Origin: Lachnospiraceae bacterium
GTDB taxonomy: Bacteria; Bacillota; Clostridia; Lachnospirales; Lachnospiraceae
DNA length: 64,000 nucleotides
Assembly (NCBI GenBank): GCA_015056815.1
Contig: SVFN01000028.1
Coordinates: 399-64,398, forward strand
Direction: 5' to 3'
Positions 12,853-48,884 of the stretch are shown in pieces (within the stretch, counting starts at the first letter, position 1; each line of letters starts with the position of its first letter). Position numbers and translations under genes: made by a program. The notes under the pieces are model-generated. The model worked only from the letters and a program-made list of their open reading frames with translations. It was not told the DNA's origin and made no database searches.

Positions 12853-14259
12853 ATGCAGGATAATGTAGGAATGGAAGCAGCAAGAAGAGCAGCAGAGGAA
12901 GCAGCAAGAAGAGCAGCACAGGCAGCAGTTATGCGTGCACAACAGGCGCAGGGGGGCGGAGGAGTACAGCCTCAGCAGACAGCACAACAGCATGTACCGT
13001 CGCCACAGGCACAGGCAGCAGCGCAGGCGGCAGCTATGCGTCAGCAGGCACAGAACGCAGGCGGAGCCGGTCAGGCACAGAATGCAGCACAGGGCGGTGC
13101 GGGAGCTGCAGATATTCAGAGGAGTGCCATGGATATGGCTGCGAAGATCGCAGAAGCATCTGCAGCGAAAGCGACTCACGATGCGATCGAGTCTATCTAT
13201 GAGGAAAAGGATGCAGCAAAAAAAGCAGCTGATGAAGGAAAAGTAAAAAAAGCAACGCTGGAGCTTGTAACAAAGACCGCTCAGGAAGCAGCGAAGAAGA
13301 TGGGCGAAGAAGGCGCAAAGCATATGCGCGAGACAAACCAGAAGGTTGAGGATGCGGTTAAGAAAGCGAAAGATGAAGCCAAAACAAAGGCGGAAGCGGA
13401 AGCGAAGAAAGCCGTAAACGATGCGGTTACAAAAGCGGACGCTGAAGCAAAGAAAGCTGTTGAAGAAGCGGTTAAGAAAGCAGAAGAAGAAGCTAAGAAG
13501 ATGATCGCTGATGCAAAAGCAAAAGCGGAAGCAGAAGCAAAGAAAAAAGTGGAAGAGGCAGGAAAAGCAGCGGAGGCCGCTCAGGCACCGAACATCGAAG
13601 CTGCTGTAAAGCGTGCGGAAGAAGAAACACGTAAGAGTGCAGGGACCGCTGCAAAGCAGGAAGAGACAAATACATTAAAGAATATAGAAGAATCGATTCG
13701 CAAAGAAGTAGATGCAGCCGCTGTTAAGAATGCTCAGGAGATGGTTAAGAAATTAGAGAGCGACAGACTGGCACGTATCGAAGAAGAGAAGAAACGTGCG
13801 GAAGAAGAAAGAAAACGTGCGGAAGAAGAAAGACTGAAACGCGAAGCGGAAGAGAAAGCAAAACGTGAAGCGGAAGAGAAGGCACGCCGCGAAGCAGAAG
13901 AAAAAGCGAAACGTGAAGCGGAAGAGAAGGCGAAACGCGAAGCGGAAGAAAAAGCAAAACGTGAAGCGGAAGAAGCTGAGCGTCAGCGTCAGGCGGCAGC
14001 TGAAGCAGCTTTCAAGCAGGTAGAAGCAGAAGCCGCAGCGAAACGTGAAGAAGAAAATGCAGCTGCTATGGCAGCGGAAGCCGCAGCAAAAGCAAGAGAA
14101 GAAGTAACCCAGGCTGCGAAACCGAAACAGCAGGGTATCTCTTTGGACGAATTCCAGAAAGCAGCCATGAAGTTAAAGATCCTTCTCGACAACGGAATCA
14201 TTTCCCAAGCCGAGTTCGACGCCGAAAAACAAAAACTTGTCGCAAATATGCGTATGTAA
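12853..14259 (+). CDS. Ala/Glu/Lys-rich low-complexity (coiled-coil-like) protein with a C-terminal SHOCT domain
   Basis: No signal peptide or TM segment. About 420 aa of A/E/K/Q-rich helical sequence. The C-terminus ISLDEFQKAAMKLKILLDNGIISQAEFDAEKQKLV matches the SHOCT short C-terminal domain pattern. Confidence 0.7.
   Translation: MQDNVGMEAARRAAEEAARRAAQAAVMRAQQAQGGGGVQPQQTAQQHVPSPQAQAAAQAAAMRQQAQNAGGAGQAQNAAQGGAGAADIQRSAMDMAAKIAEASAAKATHDAIESIYEEKDAAKKAADEGKVKKATLELVTKTAQEAAKKMGEEGAKHMRETNQKVEDAVKKAKDEAKTKAEAEAKKAVNDAVTKADAEAKKAVEEAVKKAEEEAKKMIADAKAKAEAEAKKKVEEAGKAAEAAQAPNIEAAVKRAEEETRKSAGTAAKQEETNTLKNIEESIRKEVDAAAVKNAQEMVKKLESDRLARIEEEKKRAEEERKRAEEERLKREAEEKAKREAEEKARREAEEKAKREAEEKAKREAEEKAKREAEEAERQRQAAAEAAFKQVEAEAAAKREEENAAAMAAEAAAKAREEVTQAAKPKQQGISLDEFQKAAMKLKILLDNGIISQAEFDAEKQKLVANMRM
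13837..13980 (+). repeat. Six tandem 24-bp coding repeats (KREAEEKA)
   Basis: Units begin at 13837, 13861, 13885, 13909, 13933 and 13957. They differ mainly at synonymous third positions (cgc/cgt, gag/gaa, aaa/aag, gca/gcg). Confidence 0.9.
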
Positions 14260-14281
14260 ATGAGAAGTGCGTAAAAATAAT

Positions 14282-14634
14282 AAAAGAGCCGATGCCATGC
14301 GAAGCATGAGCGATTGGCTCTTTTATTATTTTTACATACGGCGAATGCCGTCGACCCCACGGACGCGAATGCGTTCGTGGGGTGCGCACTTCTCATTTAC
14401 ATAGGAACGAGGAAAAAGAGCCGATGCCATGCGAAGCATGAGCGATCGGCTCTTTTATTATTTTTACATACGGCGAATGCCGTCGACCCCACGGACGCGA
14501 ATGCGTTCGTGGGGTGCGCACTTCTCATTTACATAGGAACGAGGAAAAAGAGCCGATGCCATGCGAAGCATGAGCGATCGGCTCTTTTATTATTTTTACA
14601 TACGGCGAATGCCGGCGACCCGACGGACGCGAAT
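14282..14634 (+). repeat. Non-coding tandem array, 132-bp unit x ~2.7, each unit made of three hairpins
   Basis: The landmark GAGCC recurs at 14286, 14418 and 14550. Unit hairpins are A (AAAGAGCCGAT..ATCGGCTCTTT with a nested CATGC-GAA-GCATG tip, then a T-rich tract), B (ACGGC-GAAT-GCCGT) and C (CCCCACG-G-ACGC-GAAT-GCGT-T-CGTGGGG). The copies are nearly identical. Confidence 0.95.
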
Positions 14635-14891
14635 ATACAACAATAAAAATGGTTGAAAATGCCTTTTTTGAGGTTGAAAAATATTACAACAAAAACACTT
14701 GAAAAATATAGCAATTCCCCACATACAAATGTCAAAATTCTTACAAATAATAGTCGAAAATAAAAAGAATATGTGATAGAATATAAAAGACTTTAAAAAA
14801 CAGATATCCAAATCCGCACAAAAAATACTGTAATAATGAATCTTTTTGGGCGATTATGCGGATATCAAGAAAAAGAGGAGGTAAGAAGGGA

Positions 14892-17800
14892 ATGAAAAAT
14901 TTCAAAAGGTATCTGGCTGCCTTTACGGCGGCAGTCGTGACTGTGACATCTTTACCTGCAGCGAATATGCCGGTGCAAGCGGCAAATGTGACTGCAGACA
15001 GGATTGCTTCAGCAGATACGACAGTAGTATTGCATCCGGAAAAGGCATCTCCGTTTAATGATACGGATAATGACGGATTCGGAGAATTCCAGGGCTGGGG
15101 TACTTCCCTTTGCTGGTGGGCAAACAGACTTGGATACAGTGAGAAGCTGACAGCAGATGCGGCGAAAGTATTTTTTAGTGATGAAGGACTGGATCTGAAC
15201 ATTGGCCGTTACAATATTGGCGGTGGAGACAATGTTGGTGAGGAAGTAACGGTGGAAAAAGTCGTTGCGAATGAAAAGGCACAGTTTTTTGATCTGGAGA
15301 CAGAGGGGAAAAAGCCTGAGTACAGCGGAACCGAAATGAAGGTTTCGGATATGACAAAGCTTTCAAATGCCGTTTATACACAGACTGATGCAGACTTTGG
15401 CTTCAATAAGGGAGATAAAGTGGGAAGCTTCAAATATATCGGCTGGATCAATAAACTGGGTGATTCCGCGGGTAAGGGAGACAATCTGCATTATACTGTT
15501 GATGTACCGGAAGCAGGCAAATATACCGTTAAGGTGATCGCTACACTCGAGATCGGTTCCGGAGACAGCTTGAGCAGGGATATTGCGATACGCATTAACG
15601 AAGGAACGGAAGAAGAGATTGATTATGTAGTAGGTACAGACCAGTTAAATAAGAATGAGATCTGCGCTGCCGCAAGTAACCAGCATTTATATATGGCAAC
15701 GATTTCAGATATTTCACTTCATGCCGGAGAAAACAAGATCAATGTGGCCGGTCAAAAAGACTGGACTCTTGATTTTGTTAAAATGGCTGTGATCAAGAGC
15801 TCTGAGCTGGGAGTGGTACCGGAAGAACCGGCAGGCAGTGAATTCCGTCACGCACCGCATATCACGCGTTCGGATTCTGCGGTACCCGGTTATGCAAAAG
15901 ATGTGACCAAGATCAAAATTACAGAAGAAAAAGACGAAGAATACTGGACGAGTCATTTTGCAAGAGCTGATTTTGACTGTGGTTTTGCCTGGAACTATGA
16001 CTGGACGGCTGATCAGAATCAGTTGAATATCTTAAAGGCGGCAAAAGCAGCCAGCGGAAAGGACTTTATTGCAGAAGCATTTTCCAATTCTCCGCCATAT
16101 TTCATGACTTACAGCGGATGCAGTTCGGGAAATGTGGATGCCAATAAGGATAATCTGCGCAAGGATTCCTATAAAGCGTTTGCAAAATATATGGCAGATG
16201 TGATCGTACATTGGGCGGAAGAAGGGCTTGTGGATTTTCAGAGTGTGGATCCGATGAACGAGCCTTATACCAATTACTGGGGAGCTTACAGCTATAAGCA
16301 GGAAGGCTGTCATTTTGATCAGGGTACTTCTGAGTCTACGATTTTTGAAGAACTGTATGATGAAATGAATGCTCTGGCAGAAAAATCAGACAATGAAAAT
16401 GTAAAGAGGGTTGTCTCTTCTATTATTTATTGCGGTACAGATGAAACAAGCATCGATACATCGATCTCCTCTTATAATAAACTGTCCGACAAGGCGAAGG
16501 GAATTATCGGAAGGATTGATACCCATACCTACAGCGGATCCAATCGTGCAGGTTTAAGTGCCCTTGCAGAACAGGAAGGTAAGAACCTGTGGATGTCCGA
16601 GGTGGATGGTGCATATCAGGCAGGACAGAATGCCGGCAATATGTCAGCTGGTCTTGGCATCAGCCAGGCGATCATGAAAGACATCAAAGGGCTTCGCTGT
16701 ACGGCATGGATCATGTGGAATGCGGTAGATACTAATGTTGACCGTACCAACGCAGCGGATGCAGATGAGATGCAGGATCTGTATACGAAAAAGAATGATA
16801 AGGGAGAAATCCTTTATAAACCGAATATCGGTTACTGGGGAATAGCGCTTGGCAATCATAATGATGAGAAGATTGTTTTGACCAAGAAATATTACGCAAT
16901 GGGACAGTTCAGCCGCTATATCCGTCCGGGCTTTTGTGTGATCGAGAGCACAGGCGACTCACTGGCAGCCTATGATCCTCATAAGAAGGAAGCGGTCATC
17001 GTAGTAAACAATACGAAAGCATCCGATCAGACCTGTTCCTTCGATCTGACAAACTTTACCGGTATGAGTGATAAGATCACGGCGATCCGTACCAGTGGTG
17101 TGGTTGTAGATACGAATGCAGCCTTTGATGAGGCAAAACTGATTGAAGGTGAGAACTGGGCAGACGTAACCAAGATCGATGATATTAAAGCTGATGCAAA
17201 CAAGCAGACATTTACGGCAACCTTAAAAGCCAATTCCGTAACGACATATATTATTCATGATGTAGAGTACAGTTATAATAAGGCTGCTTTCTATACACCT
17301 GAGGTTGAAAAGATCAAGATTAAAGCAGAGAATGTATCCGGAAGCGCGGCATGGAATAATGGAACTGTTAATACATTTGACAAAGCGGTTGATGGAAATA
17401 CAGAAACATTCTTTGACGGTGTGGCTGACGGATATGTGCAGATCGATCTGGAAGATACTTACAAGATCGAAGGCTTCGGCTACGCACCGCGTAAGAGCTT
17501 TGGCTCAAGATGTACTGGTACCTTCTACGGCTCCAATGATGAAGAAAACTGGGATAAGCTTTATACCATTACAACAACTCCTTCCGAGGGTGTGATCACA
17601 AAGGCATATTCGAATGATTTCTTCCAGACAGGTTCTTACCGCTATATCAAGTATGCGGTAAGCGGCGAGGATCTTTGTAATATAGCGGAGATCGAGATCT
17701 ATCGTACAATTGTGGATCAGGATTACTTAAAAGGAAGCGTTGAGAAGTACGAGGTTAAGACTGCAGGAAAAGAGTTCGAGAAGGATCGTCAGGCTGCTTT

Positions 17801-18863
17801 TGATGCGGCAATGCAAGAAGCGAAAGCTCTGATCGGAAAAGAAAGTGCTACGGCTGCACAGATCGATGAAGCGGTAAATAAACTTCAGAAAGCGTATGAA
17901 GCACTTAGCTCCTTTGCGGATGCATCCGCAGCAGAAGAGCTTGTGAAAGAGGCTGAGGAAAATGAAGTTGATGCGACGGTAGCGGGCGCTACTGAGTATG
18001 AAGCTGCACTGAAAGAAACGAAAGAAGTGCTTGCCAAAGAGAAAGTTTCCCAGAGTGAAGTAGATGAGGCAACGACAAAACTGCAGGCGGCGAAAGAAAC
18101 TTATGAAGAAAACGTAAAAACGGAGCAGGAAACACTTGCAAAAACAGAAGAGGCCATGAAAGCGGCAGAGGAAGCAGTGGCTTCAAATGATCTTAACAAG
18201 AGTAAAGCAGCAGTAGAAGCAGCAAAAGCAGCCTATGATGCGCTGACAGATGCCCAGAAAGCAAAACTTTCGGATGATGCAAAAGCAAAATTTGAACAGA
18301 CTCAGACCACATATGCTGCAGCGGTAAAGGCTGCGGAGGATGCGAAAAAAGCAGCAGAAGCAAAACCGGCAGCAGTTGGAACAGTGATCGCAGGAAGCTA
18401 TGTCGTAACGAATGCGAATGCCTCTTCTCCGGAAGTGGCTTACAAACAGAATCCGGATAAGAACGCGAAGAAGGTTGCAATTGCTGCAACCGTTACCGAG
18501 AAGGGAATTACTTATAAAGTTACTTCCATCGCAGCCAATGCCTTTAAGGGAAATAAGAAGCTTAGCAGTGTTACGATCCCGGCGGGAGTGACTTCCATCG
18601 GTAAGAATGCATTTGCAGGCTGTGTTGCACTCAAGAAGATCACGATTCCGGAAAATGTGACCGATATCGGTTCCAAAGCATTTAGCGGAGATAAGAATCT
18701 GAAGAAGATCACGATCCGCTCAACGGTGCTGAAAAAAGTCGGTTCCGGTGCGTTTAAGAACATTCATAAGAAAGCAACGATCAAAGTACCGAAGAAGCAG
18801 AAAAAAGCATATCAGAAGCTGTTAAAGAAAAAAGGACAGGCTTCAACCGTAAAGATCAAATAA
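14892..18863 (+). CDS. Multidomain secreted glycoside hydrolase (clan GH-A, GH30-like) with CBM-like insert, F5/8 type C domain, FIVAR-like helical repeats and C-terminal BspA-type leucine-rich repeats
   Basis: Signal peptide (AAFTAAVVTVTSLPAANMPVQA). FGEFQGWGTSLCWWANRLG is an N-terminal GH30/COG5520-type motif. Candidate acid/base is NEP (DPMNEPYTNYW) and candidate nucleophile is LWMSEVDG. Also present are YVQIDLEDTYKIEGFGYAPR (discoidin-like), repeated ..IDEAVNKLQKAYEAL.. helices, and C-terminal VTSIGKNAFAGC..LKKITIPENVTDIGSKAFSG repeats. Start set to MKNFKRY after a GAGGAGG RBS. Confidence 0.7.
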   Translation: MKNFKRYLAAFTAAVVTVTSLPAANMPVQAANVTADRIASADTTVVLHPEKASPFNDTDNDGFGEFQGWGTSLCWWANRLGYSEKLTADAAKVFFSDEGLDLNIGRYNIGGGDNVGEEVTVEKVVANEKAQFFDLETEGKKPEYSGTEMKVSDMTKLSNAVYTQTDADFGFNKGDKVGSFKYIGWINKLGDSAGKGDNLHYTVDVPEAGKYTVKVIATLEIGSGDSLSRDIAIRINEGTEEEIDYVVGTDQLNKNEICAAASNQHLYMATISDISLHAGENKINVAGQKDWTLDFVKMAVIKSSELGVVPEEPAGSEFRHAPHITRSDSAVPGYAKDVTKIKITEEKDEEYWTSHFARADFDCGFAWNYDWTADQNQLNILKAAKAASGKDFIAEAFSNSPPYFMTYSGCSSGNVDANKDNLRKDSYKAFAKYMADVIVHWAEEGLVDFQSVDPMNEPYTNYWGAYSYKQEGCHFDQGTSESTIFEELYDEMNALAEKSDNENVKRVVSSIIYCGTDETSIDTSISSYNKLSDKAKGIIGRIDTHTYSGSNRAGLSALAEQEGKNLWMSEVDGAYQAGQNAGNMSAGLGISQAIMKDIKGLRCTAWIMWNAVDTNVDRTNAADADEMQDLYTKKNDKGEILYKPNIGYWGIALGNHNDEKIVLTKKYYAMGQFSRYIRPGFCVIESTGDSLAAYDPHKKEAVIVVNNTKASDQTCSFDLTNFTGMSDKITAIRTSGVVVDTNAAFDEAKLIEGENWADVTKIDDIKADANKQTFTATLKANSVTTYIIHDVEYSYNKAAFYTPEVEKIKIKAENVSGSAAWNNGTVNTFDKAVDGNTETFFDGVADGYVQIDLEDTYKIEGFGYAPRKSFGSRCTGTFYGSNDEENWDKLYTITTTPSEGVITKAYSNDFFQTGSYRYIKYAVSGEDLCNIAEIEIYRTIVDQDYLKGSVEKYEVKTAGKEFEKDRQAAFDAAMQEAKALIGKESATAAQIDEAVNKLQKAYEALSSFADASAAEELVKEAEENEVDATVAGATEYEAALKETKEVLAKEKVSQSEVDEATTKLQAAKETYEENVKTEQETLAKTEEAMKAAEEAVASNDLNKSKAAVEAAKAAYDALTDAQKAKLSDDAKAKFEQTQTTYAAAVKAAEDAKKAAEAKPAAVGTVIAGSYVVTNANASSPEVAYKQNPDKNAKKVAIAATVTEKGITYKVTSIAANAFKGNKKLSSVTIPAGVTSIGKNAFAGCVALKKITIPENVTDIGSKAFSGDKNLKKITIRSTVLKKVGSGAFKNIHKKATIKVPKKQKKAYQKLLKKKGQASTVKIK

Positions 18864-20106: not shown

Positions 20107-21014
20107 AAAAAAGTACAAAAAGTACCGTTTGGGTGGGATGTGTCAGTATCGGGATCGGATTGCTCTTTAGCATTGCGGCAGTGACATTGGGAGCGGTTAC
20201 AGCAGTTCCGGAGTTAATGCGTACCGGTGACATCAAAGGAATCAGCTTTTTCAATACTCCATGGGGGAGAATGGAAGATCTTGCTGATGAGGGATGGGAG
20301 AGCTTTAAAGGCCAGCTCTTTCAGGAATCCGGGAAAAAAACGGCTGTGGCAAAAGCCGATGATATCGGGAAGCTGGATATAGACTGTGGAGCGGCAGAAC
20401 TGCTCATAAAGGAATCGGAGGATGATTCTGTTTATCTGGCCACCAACTCATATGTGAAAGTTAAATACCGGGTCGAAGACGATGACCTGTATATAAAATG
20501 CAAAGGAAAAACCGGGACAGACATACATGGCAAGGTTGAGCTGTATCTGCCAAAGGAGGTGACGGCAGAGCGGATTAAGATCGATCTGGGAGCAGGAACG
20601 GTCAAAAATGAGACAGCATTACATGCGGAAGAACTGTTCTTAGAGATAGGTGCCGGAGATGCAAGCCTTTCAGATGTGACAGTACAGACGACAGAGGCAC
20701 ATGTGGGCGCGGGAAAACTCAGATTTGATAAATTTGTGACAGAAGAACTGAAGACGGATGTGGCAATGGGAGAGTTTTCCTTTGACGGTCGGATCGATCA
20801 GGAAGCGGCGGTGGATGTTGCTATGGGAAACGCCGAGATACAGCTTTCGGACAGCAGTGATGAATATTCCTGTGAAGTCTCCGTGGGAGCCGGAGAGGTA
20901 ACGGTAGGCGGACAGAAAATGGCGGGAGCCTATGACGGAGAGTTCGGAGACGGGGATAAGGAACTGAACCTGGACTGCTCTATGGGAAGGATCAAAGTAA
21001 CCTTCGCAAAATAG
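20103..21014 (+). CDS. DUF4097 (putative adhesin / LiaG-YvlB-like) domain protein
   Basis: One N-terminal TM segment, then repetitive beta-strand motifs (IDLGAGTV.., LEIGAGDASL, AHVGAGKLRF, VAMGEFSF, VSVGAGEVTV). The start overlaps the upstream stop by 4 nt. Confidence 0.65.
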   Translation: MKKSTKSTVWVGCVSIGIGLLFSIAAVTLGAVTAVPELMRTGDIKGISFFNTPWGRMEDLADEGWESFKGQLFQESGKKTAVAKADDIGKLDIDCGAAELLIKESEDDSVYLATNSYVKVKYRVEDDDLYIKCKGKTGTDIHGKVELYLPKEVTAERIKIDLGAGTVKNETALHAEELFLEIGAGDASLSDVTVQTTEAHVGAGKLRFDKFVTEELKTDVAMGEFSFDGRIDQEAAVDVAMGNAEIQLSDSSDEYSCEVSVGAGEVTVGGQKMAGAYDGEFGDGDKELNLDCSMGRIKVTFAK

Positions 21015-21127
21015 TTTAAGGACAAAGGAGGCAGCAGAATATGAAAACAGTAGCAGTGATCCTGATCGTTTTAGTGGTAGCAATGATCTTAAAAAATGGT
21101 AGTATAAGAATAAAGGAGGGAGTCATT

Positions 21128-21313
21128 ATGGCAAACGATTATAAGGAGCTTCGCAGATCTTCCACGAACAAAGTGATCTGTGGTGTATGTGGAGGTATCG
21201 GGGAATATTTCAATGTGGATCCGACGATCATACGTGTGCTTTTCGTGTTGATCGGCTGTACCGGTACCGGATTACTTGCATATCTTCTGATGGCAGTGAT
21301 CATTCCGGAATAA
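21128..21313 (+). CDS. PspC-domain membrane protein
   Basis: LRRSSTNKVICGVCGGIGEYFNVDPTIIRVLFVL is the PspC domain signature, followed by one TM segment. AAGGAGGGAG RBS before the ATG at 21128. An in-frame upstream ATG at 21041 also has a strong RBS. Confidence 0.8.
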   Translation: MANDYKELRRSSTNKVICGVCGGIGEYFNVDPTIIRVLFVLIGCTGTGLLAYLLMAVIIPE

Positions 21314-21329
21314 TGTGAATCGTACAGAG

Positions 21330-21360
21330 GACAGGTGCCGTTGAAGGCACCTGTCTTTTT
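21330..21360 (+). terminator. Rho-independent terminator
   Basis: GACAGGTGCC-gttgaa-GGCACCTGTC followed by T5. Confidence 0.85.
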
Positions 21361-21406
21361 GCGTTTTTAAGCCACGCAAAAGGGCTTTTGGAGGCCTTCA
21401 AATGAC

Positions 21407-21436
21407 TTGACAGTGTCCGTGGCGATTTGCTAAAAT
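21407..21436 (+). promoter_or_regulatory. Candidate sigma-A promoter of valS
   Basis: TTGACA at 21407-21412, 18-nt spacer, TAAAAT at 21431-21436. This leaves a leader of only ~35 nt. Confidence 0.55.
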
Positions 21437-21475
21437 ATAGCCAAAACGATATACGCTTAAAGAAGGAGGCAAGTC

Positions 21476-24136
21476 ATGGCTAAGGAACTTGCAAAAACAT
21501 ACGATCCTCACGGGATTGAGGACAAAATTTATCAGAACTGGTTAGACAAAAAATATTTTCATGCCGAGGTGGATCATACGAAGAAACCGTTTACGATCGT
21601 GATCCCGCCGCCAAACATCACAGGTCAGCTTCATATGGGACATGCTCTTGACAATACGATGCAGGATATCCTGATCCGTTTTAAGAGAATGCAGGGTTAT
21701 AACGCACTGTGGCAGCCCGGCACCGACCATGCCAGTATTGCAACAGAGGTTAAGATCATAGAGAAATTAAAAGAGGAAGGGATTGATAAGCACGATCTTG
21801 GCAGAGAGAAATTTCTGGAGCGTGCATGGGACTGGAAAAAGGAATACGGCGGACGCATCATCAGCCAGCTAAAGAAGATGGGATCTTCCTGTGACTGGGA
21901 CAGAGAACGTTTTACCATGGACGAAGGGTGCAATCAGGCTGTTACCGAAGTATTCTGTAAGATGCATGAGAAAGGCTATATTTATAAAGGAGCCCGTATC
22001 GTCAACTGGTGCCCGGTATGCAACACTTCGATTTCAGATGCAGAAGTAGAATACGAAGAGCAGGCCGGACATTTCTGGCATATCAAATATCCGCTTGTAG
22101 ATGAGAACGGGCAGCCGAGCAGGACAGAATTTTTAGAGTTTGCGACCACGCGTCCGGAGACAATGCTGGGTGATACCGCAGTTGCCGTTAATCCGGATGA
22201 TGAGCGTTACACCTATCTGCATGGCAGAAGTGTATGGCTTCCGATCGTAAACAAAGCGATCCCTGTGGTTGAGGACCGCTATGTTGATATGGAATTCGGA
22301 ACCGGTGTTGTAAAGATCACTCCCGGACATGACCCGAACGACTTTGAGGTTGGTAAGAGACATAATCTTCCAATCGTTAATATCATGAACGATGATGCCA
22401 CCATCAACAAAAACGGGGGTATTTATGAAGGAATGGATCGCTATGAGGCACGTAAGGCGATTCTGAAAGAACTTGAAAAAGAAGGACTTCTGGTTGAGAT
22501 CGAAGATTACAGTCATAATGTCGGTACACATGACCGCTGCAAAACTACGGTAGAGCCTTTGGTAAAAGAGCAGTGGTTTGTGCGCATGGATGAATTGATC
22601 AAGCCTGCGGCAGAAGCTGTGAAAAACGGAGAGATCCGTCTGGTTCCGGAACGTATGGATAAAACCTACTTTAACTGGACAGACAATATTCGTGACTGGT
22701 GTATTTCCAGACAACTCTGGTGGGGACACCGTATTCCTGCTTATTATTGTGATGAATGTGGAGAGACCGTTGTGGCAAAAGAAGCACCCTGCAAATGTGA
22801 GAAATGCGGAGGGACTTCCTTTACACAGGATCCCGACACTCTGGATACCTGGTTCTCTTCTGCACTTTGGCCGTTTTCGACATTGGGCTGGCCCGAACAG
22901 ACGGAAGATCTGAAATACTTCTACCCTACGGATGTACTGGTGACCGGATATGACATTATCTTTTTCTGGGTAATCCGTATGATATTCTCCGGCTATGAAC
23001 ATATGGGCGAGAAACCGTTTAAGACGGTATTGTTCCATGGACTGGTCAGAGACAGTCAGGGACGTAAGATGAGTAAGTCGCTGGGTAATGGTATCGATCC
23101 TTTGGAGATCATTGAACAGTATGGTGCGGACGCACTGCGTCTTACGCTGATCACGGGTAATGCACCCGGGAATGATATGCGTTTCTACTATGAGAGAGTA
23201 GAAGCAAGCCGTAACTTTGCCAATAAAGTATGGAATGCCTCCCGCTTTATTTTGATGAATATGGAGGGAAAAACAATCCCTGCCGATGCCAAAGACCATT
23301 TGGAGCCGGTAGATAAGTGGATCATTTCCAAACTGAACAGTCTGGTAAAAGAGGCAACGGACAATATGGAGCATTACGAACTGGGTATTGCCGTTCAGAA
23401 AGTATATGATTTTATCTGGGATGAGTTCTGTGACTGGTATATTGAGATGGTAAAACCGCGTCTGTACAATTCTGAGGATGCGGCAAGTCAGTATGCAGCA
23501 CTGTATACCCTTAAGACAGTTCTGATCGATGCGTTAAAACTACTGCATCCTTATATGCCATTTATCACAGAGGAGATCTTTTTATCCATTCAGGATGAGG
23601 AAGAATCCATCATGATCTCCCGGTGGCCGCAGTACAGTGAAGAGAAAGTATTTGCAAAAGAAGAAAAAGAGATCGAGACGATGAAGGAGGCAGTACGCGG
23701 TATCCGTAATGTCCGCACGGGCATGAACGTTGCGCCGGGCAGGAAGGCAAGTGTTTACGTGGTTTCCGACAAAAAAGAGATTCGCGATATCTTTGAGAAT
23801 GGTAAACTGTTCTTTGCACCTTTGGCCTATGCTTCCGAGGTTGTGATCCAGGCGGACAAGACCGGGATTGCAGACGATGCGGTCAGTGTAGTGATCGCAG
23901 ATGCTACCGTTTATATTCCGTTTGCGGAACTGGTGGATATCGCACAGGAGATCGAACGGTTATCAAAAGAGGAAAAACGTCTGGCAGGTGAGATCAGACG
24001 TGCCGAAGGAATGCTTTCCAATGAAAGATTTACCAGTAAGGCTCCGGCAGCCAAGGTGCAGGAAGAGAGAGAAAAGCTTGCGAAATATACGCAGATGCGT
24101 GAGCAGGTATTGGAGAGACTTGCTTCTTTACAGTAG
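21476..24136 (+). CDS. valS: Valine--tRNA ligase
   Basis: Class I HIGH motif ([15 protein letters not shown]), KMSKS motif ([14 protein letters not shown]), editing domain, and C-terminal coiled coil. Length is 886 aa. Confidence 0.98.
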
Positions 24137-47794: not shown

Positions 47795-47823
47795 TTGCAA
47801 TTTCCCCCATAGATGGTTATAAT
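47795..47823 (+). promoter_or_regulatory. Near-consensus sigma-A promoter (TTGCAA-17 nt-TATAAT) firing into the 108-bp repeat array and truA
   Basis: TTGCAA at 47795-47800, exactly 17-nt spacer, TATAAT at 47818-47823. The predicted TSS near 47830 coincides with the first base of the repeat array (47831). Confidence 0.65.
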
Positions 47824-47830
47824 CTAACTT

Positions 47831-48114
47831 ATCAGAAGAAAACCAAGCGACGCGGATGCGTCATTTGGTTTTCCTGATAAGTTAACGAGGAAAACGAATG
47901 TTTTCCGAGTCTTCATGATAGCAGATGCTATCATGAGGATCAGAAGAAAACCAAGCGACGCGAATGCGTCATTTGGTTTTCCTGATAAGTTAACGAGGAA
48001 AACGAATGTTTTCCGAGTCTTCATGATAGCAGATGCTATCATGAGGATCAGAAGAAAACCAAGCGACGCGAATGCGTCATTTGGTTTTCCTGATAAGTTA
48101 ACGAGGAAAACGAA
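47831..48114 (+). repeat. Non-coding tandem array, 108-bp unit x ~2.6, each unit made of three hairpins (truA leader)
   Basis: ATCAGAAG recurs at 47831, 47939 and 48047. Unit hairpins are H1 (ATCAG..GAAAACCAA..GACGC-GAAT-GCGTC..TTGGTTTTC CTGAT), H2 (GGAAAAC-GAAT-GTTTTCC) and H3 (TCATGATAGC-AGAT-GCTATCATGA). Confidence 0.95.
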
Positions 48115-48137: not shown

Positions 48138-48884
48138 ATGAAAAACTATAAACTGATCATTTCGTATGACGGGACAAGATATTATGGCTGGGAGCATCAG
48201 CCGGATAAAGACACCGTGCAGGGAAGACTGGAGAATGTCTTGTCCAGAATGTGCGGGATCGGTCCGGAAGAGATCAGGATAAACGGAGCAGGCCGTACCG
48301 ATGCAGGGGTACATGCCAAAGGAATGGTAGCAAGTGTTCAAATGGACACAGAGCTGAGTACGGATGAGATTCTGGATTATGCGAATCATTATCTTCCGGA
48401 TGACATAGTGATCACACAGGTAAGGGAGGCTTCCCAACGCTTCCATGCCCGTTACAATGCAGTGGGAAAGACCTATCGTTATACCTGCCATTATGGTCGC
48501 ATCAAACCGGTTTTTGATCGTAAATATGTGACGAGACTAGAATTTGTGCCGGATGTGGAAAAGATGAAGGAAGCGGCCAATGTACTGGTGGGAAAGCATG
48601 ATTTTAAAAGTTTTTGCAGTAATCCCCGCATGAAGAAATCCACGGTCCGTATCGTAGACAGGATTGAGATCAGCACAAAGAACGGTTATCTGTATTTTAA
48701 TGTGCATGGTACCGGATTTTTACAGAATATGGTCCGGATCATCGTTGGCACACTGTTAGAAGTCGGAAAGGGTGCGATGCGGCCGGAACAGGTGAAAGAA
48801 ATACTCGAGGCAAAGGACAGGAGACTTGCGGGTCCGACAGCACCACCGGAAGGACTTTGCCTGATCGAAGTGGATTATCAGTAG
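48138..48884 (+). CDS. truA: tRNA pseudouridine(38-40) synthase
   Basis: ISYDGTRYYGWEHQ and the catalytic motif GAGRTDAGVHA. Length is about 248 aa. AAGGAG RBS before the ATG at 48138. Confidence 0.93.
   Translation: MKNYKLIISYDGTRYYGWEHQPDKDTVQGRLENVLSRMCGIGPEEIRINGAGRTDAGVHAKGMVASVQMDTELSTDEILDYANHYLPDDIVITQVREASQRFHARYNAVGKTYRYTCHYGRIKPVFDRKYVTRLEFVPDVEKMKEAANVLVGKHDFKSFCSNPRMKKSTVRIVDRIEISTKNGYLYFNVHGTGFLQNMVRIIVGTLLEVGKGAMRPEQVKEILEAKDRRLAGPTAPPEGLCLIEVDYQ

Follow-up and report, generated by a model that had tools for sequence, protein, structure and literature searches.

A tandem array of three-hairpin units behind a Lachnospiraceae SHOCT gene: a possible hairpin minisatellite of DNA-level origin

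Introduction

What is the run of near-identical, hairpin-rich 132-bp units that lies just behind a protein-coding gene of an uncultured Lachnospiraceae lineage, and how did it arise? The array (Array 1, positions 14282-14634) sits in a window of 64,000 nucleotides, which is the whole stretch of DNA analyzed here. A preliminary description of the window, made from the letters alone, had noted the array and its hairpins. On the evidence assembled below, Array 1 looks like a locally grown repeat akin to the REP/BIME and BOX elements, and not like a new RNA gene or a mobile element.

Genomic context

The gene upstream of Array 1 (12853-14259, + strand, from the open reading frame list) encodes an E/K/A-rich protein of 468 amino acids with a C-terminal SHOCT domain (PF09851, E 6.7e-8, in the last 59 residues), in agreement with the preliminary description. 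A homologue search with this protein was dominated by low-complexity matches and yielded no orthologue. The gene terminates in …ATG CGT ATG TAA, which forms part of the left arm of the closing stem described below. Hairpin A of the first repeat copy begins 12 nt past the stop codon and is followed by the T tract TTTTATTATTTTT; as judged from this predicted arrangement, it most likely serves the SHOCT gene as an intrinsic terminator. A consensus terminator scan called nothing in Array 1 because the 19-nt loop of hairpin A exceeds the 8-nt limit of the scan. The preliminary description spoke of three terminator-like hairpins, which overstates the case: a T-rich tract is found only behind hairpin A, and in copy 1 this tract is base-paired with the upstream A tract.

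Downstream of the array, a unique AT-rich spacer (14635-14891, + strand) carries a promoter-like TCGAAA-17-TAGAAT site with a TG element (14754-14782). It leads to a gene (14892-18863, + strand) for a 1323-residue surface-type protein with F5/8 type C and BspA-type LRR (LRR_5) domains, which is missing between the SHOCT gene and padR in the relative L036. The window contains 58 open reading frames of at least 150 aa, of which 34 were judged likely protein-coding, and none of these 34 encodes a transposase, HUH enzyme, integrase, or reverse transcriptase.

Repeat structure

Tandem Repeats Finder (TRF) delimits Array 1 at 14282-14634 with a period of 132, 2.7 copies, 98% matches, no indels, and a score of 685, so that the tandem arrangement of about 2.7 nearly identical copies first reported is reproduced. 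The copies start at 14282, 14414, and 14546, and the array length corresponds to 2.67 units. Units 1 (14282-14413) and 2 (14414-14545) are each 132 bp long, lie on the + strand, and differ from one another by a single base, while the partial unit 3 (14546-14634, + strand, 89 bp) differs from unit 2 by two. The three variable positions are 14315/14447 (T/C), 14483/14615 (T/G), and 14490/14622 (C/G). The units abut without the unique spacers of similar length that define a CRISPR array, which eliminates that identity, as the preliminary description had already concluded.

The edges of the array are sharp. The left edge falls exactly at 14282, since base 14281 does not match base 14413, and unrelated sequence follows the right edge at 14634. 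Partial unit 3 comprises hairpins A and B, followed by hairpin C as far as its left arm and GAAT loop, such that the array terminates exactly behind this loop, where …GACGCGAAT gives way to ATACAAC. This right junction is identical in the independent assemblies L187-L190. That the array ends inside a hairpin loop had escaped the preliminary description.

Successive units are joined by the linker GGAACGAGGAAAA (14404-14416, + strand), which contains the Shine-Dalgarno-like 11-mer AACGAGGAAAA that recurs in a second array. When read from the sequence, each unit presents this box followed by a mini-ORF of 5-6 codons. A template for the linker (9-11 nt) or for hairpin 3 of the second array was found nowhere in the window; a cluster of 10-mer matches at 27.7-27.9 kb lies in coding sequence and was dismissed as chance.

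Hairpins and the closing helix

Each unit folds into three hairpins, designated A, B, and C, and these were recovered as originally described by both the inverted-repeat search and the folds. Hairpin A of copy 1 (14271-14335, + strand) consists of a 23-bp stem, formed by an A-tract arm and a T-tract arm with one G·T pair, and is capped by the tip CATGC-GAA-GCATG, which includes the GCGAAGC mini-hairpin. In the later copies the inverted-repeat search finds a stem of only 12 bp. Hairpin B (ACGGC-GAAT-GCCGT; 14338-14351, + strand) includes the mini-hairpin motif GCGAATGC and recurs on the same strand at 14470-14483 and 14602-14615, with the last stem base altered in copy 3. Hairpin C (CCCCACG-G-ACGC-GAAT-GCGT-T-CGTGGGG; 14355-14382, + strand) has the core GACGCGAATGCGT, which is common to the second array, and is repeated in copy 2 (14487-14514, + strand).

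A fourth helix, overlooked in the preliminary description, results from inverted copies of the 3′ end of the gene within each unit. The stop codon region and the following 12 nt make up arm a (TATGTAAATGAGAAGTGCG; 14253-14271, + strand), and its exact inverted copy, arm a′ (CGCACTTCTCATTTACATA, + strand), is found at 14385-14403 in copy 1 and at 14517-14535 in copy 2, with complementarity over all 19 nt (100%). Because the unit carries this 19-nt inverted copy, copy 1 closes into a four-way junction, and the 19-bp closing helix is paired in both the minimum free energy and the centroid folds. The gene end is also present inverted in a shorter version, TTTACATACG (14331-14340, + strand), which is the reverse complement of CGTATGTAAA at 14251-14260 and likewise recurs once per unit, at 14463-14472 and 14595-14604.

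The predicted stability of these structures is far from random. A single unit folded as DNA reaches -39.8 kcal/mol (z -7.9), and the first copy with its left flank folded as RNA reaches -101.1 kcal/mol (z -16), a value that none of 200 shuffled sequences attained. This bears out the earlier remark that the structure exceeds the needs of one gene end. In a 130-nt sliding fold across the window, the two strongest outliers are Array 1 and the second array (Array 2, 47831-48114), and a hairpin census found perfect GAAT-loop hairpins confined to these two arrays. Since DNA and RNA energies are approximately equal on both strands, folding by itself does not identify the strand that matters.

The hairpin tips match known mini-hairpin DNA motifs exactly (GCGNAGC / GCGAAB-GC class), although their formation in vivo is putative. 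GCGAAGC is located at 14299, 14431, and 14563 at the tips of hairpin A, and GCGAATGC at 14341, 14365, 14473, 14497, and 14605. Both are listed as extraordinarily stable mini-hairpin DNA in a 2026 review (PMC13037366), with Tm values of 76.5 C for GCGAAGC and 70 C for GCGAATGC, which substantiates the statement on GCGAAGC in the preliminary description. Within the window, the + strand carries all nine occurrences of GCGAATGC; this strand is probably the lagging-strand template, given that it is the G-rich one throughout.

A second array

Array 2 (47831-48114, + strand) is composed of 2.6 copies of a 108-bp unit, also with three hairpins: GACGC-GAAT-GCGTC within a longer stem, GGAAAAC-GAAT-GTTTTCC, and TCATGATAGC-AGAT-GCTATCATGA. 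It occupies the gap that separates the ribosome-binding site of truA from a promoter-like site, the latter being a sigma-70-like TTGCAA-17-TATAAT (47795-47823, + strand) immediately upstream of the array. The flanking segment 47824-47834 (TAACTTATCAG) is present inverted in every unit as CTGATAAGTTA, and the inverted copy extends beyond the predicted transcription start into the promoter, which points to a DNA origin for Array 2 and not to selection on RNA. As in Array 1, the stem of the first copy is longer than those of later copies, and the array stops within a hairpin loop, with …GGAAAACGAA giving way to AAAG; both arrays end in a cGAA(T)g loop.

The two arrays, 33 kb apart, share the 13-mer GACGCGAATGCGT and the 11-mer AACGAGGAAAA in the same order, a match that the preliminary description had missed, and the GAAT loop occurs in four of their six hairpin types. 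Global alignment of the two units reveals no homology outside the 13-mer and the 11-mer.

Distribution and copy number

Array 1 is present in many samples of a single species, which is represented in JGI samples 3300023707, 3300021319, 3300023712, and 3300019371 and by a contig in NCBI GCA_024712465.1. The relative L036, whose neighboring permease is 75% identical, shares the gene end (GCAAATATGCGTATGTAA) but lacks the array, and an ordinary terminator starting with AAAGAGTCC… stands at this place. This makes the gene end ancestral, so that the unit copied it and not the other way round. For the closest relative (L035, permease 92% identical), the sole contig stops within the SHOCT gene. A sister species with a 90%-identical TruA lacks Array 2 and has the same promoter with a 5′UTR of about 25 nt.

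Copy number changes in steps of exactly one unit. For Array 1, three samples show 2.7 copies, and one other (JGI sample 3300019371), which lacks unit 2, shows 1.7; Array 2 has 2.6 or 1.6 copies depending on the assembly, the window having one unit more than an otherwise matching public record. The smallest form of Array 1 observed has 1.67 copies, and the predicted 0.67-copy ancestor was not seen among these assemblies. Such differences between short-read assemblies could partly reflect repeat collapse, and many contigs break inside either array. The contigs of all samples also stop at the ends of the window.

Searches beyond the species returned little that is related to Array 1. No further copy of the unit was found in the window, phages, plasmids, or viral contigs: blastn of Array 1 against phages and plasmids gave no match, the viral contigs contained neither the tandem-motif pattern nor either of two unit-specific 20-22-mers, and a two-motif pattern gave one chance match there, within a coding region. 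The pattern GCGAATGC-N-GCGAATGC proved uninformative in the viral contigs, since five multi-match contigs inspected among the matches listed represent coding Ala-Asn-Ala repeats. A metagenome scan for both shared motifs (13-mer and 11-mer) had no match; a scan for the conserved gene end had 28, of which 27 are chance and one is a same-species contig ending in hairpin A. The preliminary description had named a strain-private array lacking related copies as grounds for refutation; the array recurs in many samples of one species, but it is absent from the nearest readable relative, and no copy of the unit was found elsewhere.

A genome-collection scan for tandem ACGCGAATGCGT, a pattern that in itself favors tandem hairpins, identified 14 loci from many phyla, mostly hairpin-rich intergenic arrays with two coding repeats among them, and no array from this species. 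The ACGC-GAAT-GCGT hairpin occurs in hairpin-rich tandem arrays of Eubacteriales, Clostridia, Akkermansia, Lewinellaceae, and other metagenome-assembled genomes. A common family is not claimed for these loci, as the arrays checked do not show the same habit of ending in a loop.

Proposed origin of Array 1

Array 1 has an even chance of being a hairpin minisatellite peculiar to this lineage, built up at the DNA level around the SHOCT gene's intrinsic terminator. The ancestral gene end would have comprised the stop codon, terminator hairpin A, hairpin B, and the left half of hairpin C, in the predicted order stop codon, hairpin A, hairpin B, CGACCCGACGGACGCGAAT-ATACAAC, and would have lacked the right arm of hairpin C and a′. 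A strand undergoing replication or repair may have folded back on itself at cGAATg, a very stable loop, and used its own upstream stretch as the template for an inverted copy. Fold-back copying of this kind would yield first the right arm of hairpin C and then a′, with the folded hairpins B and A being skipped. The strand would then rejoin the forward template at the left arm of hairpin A to give a direct-inverted-direct arrangement of 1.67 units. Whole 132-bp units could subsequently be gained or lost by slipped-strand mispairing or unequal sister exchange. That template switching creates perfect hairpins in one step and that fold-back priming creates inverted duplications is established (PMC5453318, PMC10710096, PMC10622511). 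In the resulting locus, hairpin A and its T tract would end the SHOCT transcript, and the remainder of Array 1, between this predicted terminator and the next promoter, is probably poorly transcribed and largely neutral; at most, it would back up termination or hinder 3′ exonucleases.

The following points support this DNA-level minisatellite: (i) chance is far from sufficient to account for the repeat and its structure, both of which are real, (ii) TATGTAAATGAGAAGTGCG is copied exactly inverted in each unit and inverted CGTATGTAAA adjoins hairpin A, (iii) the array-less L036 has the same gene end, (iv) Array 2 obeys the same grammar of inverted flank, longer first stem, and end in a loop, and is missing from the sister species, (v) copy number differs between assemblies in one-unit steps, (vi) the loops are documented ultra-stable mini-hairpin DNA and all copies of GCGAATGC share the + strand, (vii) the 34 likely protein-coding open reading frames of the window include no mobility enzyme, and no Rfam, phage, plasmid, or viral match was obtained, and (viii) template switching and fold-back priming are established processes. 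Several features count against it. A purely local origin leaves unexplained the occurrence of GACGCGAATGCGT and AACGAGGAAAA in two arrays so far apart as well as the use of the same GAAT loop in most hairpin types, and the window offers no template from which local copying could have made hairpin 3 of Array 2 or the Array 1 linker. The skipping of hairpins A and B also leaves one unexplained junction base.

In a broader and rather unlikely version of this origin, the GCGAATGC and GCGAAGC mini-hairpins themselves would be seeds of self-propagating intergenic DNA, with turn-back of a strand or a nick by an unknown loop-specific nuclease initiating inverted copying and then tandem amplification.

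Alternative explanations

One rival is a dispersed REP-like family of hairpins in this genome. Such a family would have a core of approximately GACGC-GAAT-GCGTC, which a RAYT/IS200-IS605-type Y1 transposase or another HUH nuclease would nick in or beside the GAAT loop, and the arrays would be BIME-2-like products whose units begin and end where the nick falls. At the two loci, different outer stems are topped by one and the same 13-nt hairpin, accompanied by the 11-mer, both arrays end exactly in the cGAA(T)g loop, and every motif is on the strand that a replication fork would be expected to expose in single-stranded form; at two loci in 64 kb, a whole genome would have about 100. Enterobacterial REPs moreover have GCGNAGC mini-hairpin tips, and BIME-2 elements are tandem arrays (PMC2817692). 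Nevertheless, the 64 kb encodes no such enzyme, the core at its two loci is always arrayed with no single copy of any hairpin in the window, and the palindromes lack the conserved tetranucleotide on their 5′ side: neither GTAG nor GTGG precedes hairpin A, B, or C on either strand in the manner of GT[AG]G before a 20-40 nt palindrome, and the sole GTGG is inside the right arm of hairpin C. The hairpins also share one orientation, with all GAA/GAAT loops on the + strand, unlike the alternating BIMEs. Between the arrays only 13 + 11 nt are conserved, and growth of a palindrome on an 8-nt seed would by itself fix about half of the 13-mer; the genome-collection scan also returned no array of this species. 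A dispersed family is accordingly considered unlikely. Functional structured RNAs, the reading implied by the preliminary description, are quite improbable and find no support here. The arrays would be UTR elements that stabilize or regulate the flanking mRNAs (a 3′ structure for SHOCT, a 5′-terminal stem-loop leader for truA) or sponges whose displayed GAAU loops and SD-like AACGAGGAAAA boxes would engage ribosomes or a binding protein. No Rfam match exists, homologues for a covariation analysis are not available, and close relatives do without the arrays while the same genes work there. GAAU belongs to no known class of stable RNA tetraloop, whereas cGAATg and cGAAg are stable DNA loops (PMC13037366), and most of Array 1 is downstream of a strong terminator-like hairpin. 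The inverted repeat of Array 2 runs past the predicted transcription start on its upstream side, the number of copies is free to vary, and the evidence as a whole favors a DNA-level origin. These points are set against the sense orientation of both arrays relative to their neighboring genes, the position of Array 2 across the predicted 5′UTR from about +1 to the ribosome-binding site, the very stable folds, the SD-like box and mini-ORF of each unit, and the known capacity of BOX, BIME, and REP elements to alter the expression of co-transcribed genes (PMC3049150).

Two further explanations carry still less weight. The hairpins might act as signals in single-stranded DNA, either as primase or primosome entry sites or as hairpin promoters, as in the phage G4 origin, RSF1010 ssiA, and the early promoters of phage N4. 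The mini-hairpin motifs GCGAAGC, CCGAAGG, and GCGGAGC mark the G4, RSF1010, and N4 sites (PMC13037366), and those of Array 1 are on the probable lagging-strand template. Yet the setting is chromosomal and of an ordinary housekeeping kind, the window lacks genes of plasmids, phages, or conjugation, the phage, plasmid, and viral collections contain no match, and nothing indicates that either site needs such signals, which makes this role very improbable. An assembly artifact, meaning that a metagenome contig built from short reads contains a repeat which is chimeric or was collapsed wrongly, is suggested by the many contigs that end within the arrays and by the one-unit difference in Array 2 from the public record, but the gene-end/unit 1, unit-unit, and right junctions each recur identically in several independent JGI, ENA, Logan, and NCBI assemblies, and three assemblies agree on 2.7 copies. 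It is the most improbable of the explanations considered.

Implications

If the fold-back reading is true, the locus is a clean natural snapshot of the birth of bacterial intergenic hairpin repeats, in which a terminator hairpin captured inverted copies of its own gene end and was then amplified, with a form one unit shorter still in circulation. The biophysics of ultra-stable DNA mini-hairpins would thereby be tied to rearrangement breakpoints. Should the mini-hairpins act as seeds, they would give rise de novo to structured UTRs and clusters of terminators, with both arrays as fresh examples, and the arrays of Eubacteriales, Clostridia, Akkermansia, Lewinellaceae, and other metagenome-assembled genomes would represent the same phenomenon across phyla. 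If the hairpins are instead a dispersed family with a dedicated enzyme, they constitute a REP-like system in Lachnospiraceae. In practical terms, metagenome assemblies of this species from short reads break at both arrays, and public contigs are an unreliable guide to copy number.

Comparison with known systems

In agreement with the preliminary description, Array 1 corresponds to no known Rfam motif: the whole window has no match at the gathering score, and Array 1 searched at E <= 10 gives only sub-threshold matches to terminator-like sRNAs, the best being BcKCsr2 with 26.7 bits against a cut-off of 40. Integron attC sites and T-boxes were rejected as identities. Type III toxin-antitoxin RNAs of the ToxI kind directly precede a ToxN/AbiQ-type toxin gene and have a tandem period of some 34-36 nt, in contrast to a period of 132 bp and a next gene of the F5/8-type-C / LRR_5 type. 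The a/a′ stem of copy 1 encloses three hairpins in a manner reminiscent of a retron ncRNA (msr-msd), but the window open reading frames tested contain no reverse transcriptase domain. In MITEs, a class including BOX, RUP, and Correia elements, the terminal inverted repeats are part of what was inserted and have a target-site duplication outside them; a MITE with 19-bp terminal repeats was also rejected, since the left arm consists of the last codons and stop of the gene and is identical in the array-less L036; the left “terminal inverted repeat” is thus host sequence.

On the best reading, the architecture of Array 1 resembles REP/BIME-2 and BOX, and the array is in no named family. The REP/BIME-2 elements of Enterobacteriaceae and Pseudomonas are similarly intergenic and often at gene 3′ ends, consist of imperfect palindromes of which many have GCGNAGC mini-hairpin tips, and form tandem arrays with strain-variable numbers of units; where known, their effects are on termination, mRNA stability, and DNA-protein binding (PMC2817692). 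Array 1 differs in having no GT[AG]G, one-way hairpins, no RAYT in the window, and a Firmicute host (Lachnospiraceae), for which no REP-like repeat family was found in the literature searched. Its 132-bp unit is further distinguished by three different hairpins and an inverted local gene end. REP/BIME families number hundreds of scattered copies per genome; the 64 kb read here holds the hairpin core at two loci, both arrayed.

The pneumococcal BOX (boxA-boxB(n)-boxC) and SPRITE elements, compared by architecture only, are modular and highly base-paired intergenic repeats of a Firmicute. The outer parts of BOX pair around modules of variable tandem number, SPRITEs resemble Rho-independent terminators as does hairpin A, and the number of units differs between strains via slippage or unequal crossover (PMC3049150). 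BOX and SPRITE are nonetheless MITE-like, with about 100 dispersed copies of conserved sequence (PMC3049150), whereas no other copies of Array 1 were found, and its left “terminal repeat” is the conserved stop region of the host gene and not a part of the element.

Bacterial minisatellites (VNTRs) are like Array 1 in that their period is exact, their copies are nearly the same, and strains differ by whole units gained or lost, but ordinary VNTRs have neither nested palindromes nor ends in hairpin loops. These latter traits are closer to template-switch and fold-back mutations, which produce one-step inverted copies of adjacent sequence, stems growing outward, and breakpoints at a hairpin loop (PMC5453318, PMC10710096, PMC10622511), and the smallest form of Array 1 is likewise direct-inverted-direct. 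Such events are usually single and small, in contrast to the tandemly amplified product seen here, and a loop and short motifs common to two loci are not predicted by generic template switching. If the fold-back reading is true, Array 1 provides a possible transposase-free origin for REP/BIME- and BOX-like repeats.

Architecture of Array 1

Array 1, the 132-bp tandem hairpin repeat just 3′ of the SHOCT gene, spans 14282–14634 with a period of 132, exactly as placed in the preliminary description (Tandem Repeats Finder; 2.7 copies, 98% matches, no indels, score 685). The repeat search places the unit starts at 14282, 14414, and 14546. In a base-by-base comparison, units 1 and 2 differ at a single position (14315 T/14447 C), while unit 2 and the partial, 89-bp unit 3 differ at two (14483/14615 and 14490/14622). 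Both boundaries are abrupt, and the array stops exactly past the left arm and GAAT loop of hairpin C, where …GACGCGAAT gives way to ATACAAC.

The three successive hairpins described for each unit (A, B, and C) are borne out by inverted-repeat search, hairpin census, and folds. As DNA, a single unit folds with −39.8 kcal/mol (z −7.9), and in a 130-nt sliding fold of the whole window, Array 1 and Array 2 (a 108-bp tandem hairpin repeat upstream of truA) are the strongest outliers by far. Perfect hairpins with a GAAT loop are confined to these two arrays in the 64-kb window. The tips of A, B, and C are all “mini-hairpin DNA” motifs, GCGAAGC in A and GCGAATGC in B and C, with melting temperatures of 76.5 °C and 70 °C, respectively; such motifs also occur at the phage G4 origin, RSF1010 ssiA, and phage N4 promoters (2026 review, PMC13037366). 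The window has nine GCGAATGC octamers, all on the + strand, which has a positive GC skew throughout. Tandem repeats of 24/48/72 nt within the SHOCT coding sequence (13798–13974) specify (EEKAKREA)n, and their CGC-GAA-GCG codons regenerate GCGAAGC three times (13841, 13889, and 13937).

Inverted copies of the gene end

Several features were overlooked in the preliminary description: the mini-hairpin tips of B and C, the array end within a loop, the long stem of copy 1, and inverted copies of the gene end. The segment TATGTAAATGAGAAGTGCG (14253–14271) consists of the upstream gene's last seven bases and the following 12 nt, and each full unit contains its exact inverted copy, CGCACTTCTCATTTACATA (14385–14403 and 14517–14535). 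Because of this copy, copy 1 and its left flank fold into a closed four-way junction, with a 19-bp stem around hairpins A, B, and C (−101.1 kcal/mol, z −16, no shuffle as good). Immediately 3′ of hairpin A, every unit has another, shorter inverted copy of the gene end (TTTACATACG, 14331–14340, versus CGTATGTAAA, 14251–14260). The stem of hairpin A measures 23 bp in copy 1, owing to pairing between the T tract and GTAAAAATAATA of the unique left flank, and just 12 bp in later copies. Right arms are thus complete in every unit and left arms only at the array start.

Array 2 and shared motifs

Array 2 (47831–48114) comprises 2.6 copies of a 108-bp unit with three hairpins. A near-consensus promoter site, TTGCAA-17-TATAAT (47795–47823), lies about 7 nt before its start, and its end adjoins the truA ribosome-binding site (ATG at 48138); the array fills the predicted 5′UTR. 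The first hairpin is a long palindrome centered on GACGC-GAAT-GCGTC, the right arm of which holds CTGATAAGTTA, an inverted copy of TAACTTATCAG (47824–47834). The latter is unique left-flank sequence and extends upstream of the predicted transcription start. As in Array 1, the long stem is restricted to the first copy. Array 2 terminates in a cGAATg hairpin loop (…GGAAAACGAA, followed by AAAG).

Units of both arrays share GACGCGAATGCGT (13 nt) and, 22–31 nt downstream, AACGAGGAAAA (11 nt), and unit alignment and motif search found no other sequence common to the two. Between these motifs, both arrays have the right arm of the outer stem and then the inverted flank copy. If the palindromes grew from a common 8-nt seed, only about 3 nt of independent information remain in the 13-mer, so the sharing appears suggestive rather than overwhelming. 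The AACGAGGAAAA box is Shine-Dalgarno-like, with an ATG 6–10 nt later and a mini-ORF to TGA in both units (14409–14441; 47887–47920); the predicted products, MPCEA (Array 1) and MFSESS (Array 2), could be due to chance.

Genomic context

The upstream gene product is an E/K/A-rich protein of 468 aa, the final 59 residues of which form a SHOCT domain (PF09851, E 6.7e-8). On the 3′ side, an AT-rich spacer of 257 bp with a promoter-like site (14754–14782) separates Array 1 from the gene for a 1323-aa F5/8-type-C/LRR_5 protein. The window represents an ordinary chromosomal region, with valS, truA, argG/argB/argD-type genes, spoVA genes, a sigma factor, ABC transporters, and GGDEF/EAL proteins. Of 58 listed ORFs of 150 aa or more, 34 are likely to be protein-coding, and transposase, integrase, HUH, and reverse transcriptase domains are missing from all 34.

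In a 75%-identity relative (locus L036, 6062–7987), the SHOCT gene leads directly to padR-HAAS-DUF4097-pspC, while in the window the surface protein gene (14892–18863) lies between the SHOCT gene and padR; relative to L036, Array 1 thus borders on a gene insertion. Upstream of valS (21014–21476), even a search relaxed to E ≤ 0.1 detected neither a T-box nor any other Rfam leader; the structure in this stretch comes from a small PspC-like gene with its terminator. About 560–620 nt to the left of the window, conspecific contigs from four samples (L201–L204) all end within about 60 nt of one another, after …GGTTCTCGTTCGATAGTACTACTGTGCTAAGCATAAGCGAGCTAACCCCGTGTGCCCCACGG…, which suggests a further assembly-breaking repeated sequence.

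Variation among strains and relatives

Exact-protein look-ups place the species in more than ten samples (JGI, ENA, Logan, and NCBI). The gene-end/unit 1, unit–unit, and right junctions of Array 1 recur identically in independent assemblies, which rules out an assembly artefact. Contig breaks inside the arrays are frequent. Three assemblies carry 2.7 copies of Array 1, against 1.7 in JGI 3300019371, and Array 2 has 2.6 in the window, at least 2.3 in one contig, and 1.6 in ENA ERZ27247045 and a JGI record otherwise base-for-base equal to the window. Compared to L028/L029, namely this JGI record (3300023707 Ga0257072_1000759, offset 398) and an ENA contig, the window has an extra 108-bp unit (47939–48046), reflecting either polymorphic copy number or repeat collapse in the public assemblies. 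The smallest forms observed have 1.67 units (Array 1) and 1.63 units (Array 2).

The L036 relative (75% permease identity) has the same gene end, …GCAAATATGCGTATGTAA, which leads into an ordinary terminator (AAAGAGTCCATA…TATGGACTTTTTTT), and Array 1 is absent at that locus; the closest relative (92% permease identity) is readable only up to the gene. In a sister species that shares the gene order and whose TruA is 90% identical, the promoter is the same, the truA 5′UTR measures about 25 nt, and Array 2 is absent before truA.

Related sequences elsewhere

No Rfam family reaches threshold, in agreement with the preliminary description, in which Array 1 was not recognised as a known Rfam motif. 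A sub-threshold match to the Burkholderia sRNA BcKCsr2 (minus strand, 14545–14668; 26.7 bits, cut-off 40; E 0.0007) most likely stems from a mere likeness of terminator-like hairpins. Nothing similar to Array 1 was found in phage or plasmid collections, its unit-specific words do not occur in viral contigs, and the metagenome collection contains no instance of the two-motif pattern.

Tandem ACGCGAATGCGT occurs at 14 loci of diverse phyla in reference genomes, mostly intergenic and hairpin-rich (Eubacteriales L009, Clostridia L016, Akkermansia L011, Lewinellaceae L005, L010, L013, and L018, and others). Intergenic arrays of several short GC-rich hairpins are found in Lewinellaceae (L010, 3624–3824; L013, 3719–3968), Akkermansia (L011, 3274–3676 and 4727–4957), and Eubacteriales (L009, 1530–1766) MAGs. 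Several hairpins outside the search pattern have cGAAg, cGAATg, cGCAg, or cGACAg loops; those in other phyla include CGCC-GAAT-GGCG, AAATCCC-GAAT-GGGATTT, CGCC-GAA-GGCG, CGCCCGC-GCA-GCGGGCG, and GCCCC-GACA-GGGGC. A wider class of mini-hairpin arrays may span phyla, a lead only, because the pattern selects tandem hairpins and the checked arrays do not end in loops.

Proposed origin

The Array 1 unit holds two inverted copies of the gene end, which is ancestral; at least part of the unit was therefore made locally from the opposite strand rather than delivered as a preformed element. Such local synthesis excludes a MITE whose terminal repeats would be the 19-bp arms. The Array 2 inverted repeat extends into promoter DNA that, based on the predicted start, is untranscribed; a strong terminator-like hairpin precedes the bulk of Array 1; and the array loops are stable in DNA and belong to no known stable RNA class. 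Together with the local inverted copies, these features point to a DNA-level process over a selected RNA fold.

Local fold-back and slippage best explain Array 1, with about an even chance of being correct. The simplest route to the 1.67-unit form would start from an ancestral gene end consisting of the stop codon, terminator A, hairpin B, and the left half of C. A strand, either nascent or broken, would turn back at the cGAATg loop, copy the left arm of C and then the gene end in inverted form, skipping the folded hairpins B and A, and rejoin the forward template at the left arm of A. Slippage or unequal exchange could then add or remove whole units, giving the 1.7/2.7 and 1.6/2.6 variants. 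Both underlying processes, the formation of perfect hairpins by template switching and of inverted duplications by fold-back priming, are documented (PMC5453318, PMC10710096, and PMC10622511).

Local fold-back leaves four features unexplained: the shared 11-mer, the GAAT-loop preference, and the Array 1 linker and third hairpin of Array 2, neither of which has a template in the window. These gaps keep alive an explanation we consider unlikely, in which the hairpins of both arrays belong to a dispersed REP-like family served by a loop-specific enzyme. Somewhat more doubtful still is a general mechanism, possibly aided by an enzyme, in which mini-hairpin seeds would create and amplify structured intergenic DNA across phyla.

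Comparison with known repeats

Unlike REP/BIME elements, Array 1 has no GT[AG]G tetranucleotide and its hairpins do not alternate in orientation; membership was rejected on these testable defining features. It also lacks those of MITEs, type III antitoxin RNAs, retrons, and CRISPR arrays, the last as the preliminary description had held; the observation of the array made there is confirmed and its interpretation supported in part. In architecture and likely consequences, Array 1 resembles BIME-2 arrays of REPs, and enterobacterial REP tips are also GCGNAGC mini-hairpins (PMC2817692). The same likeness holds for pneumococcal BOX, with its paired outer modules around a variable tandem module, and for SPRITE, a terminator-like repeat (PMC3049150). 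These likenesses, along with the missing defining features of named families, place Array 1 outside any named family or categorically new system and among intergenic hairpin repeats or minisatellites.
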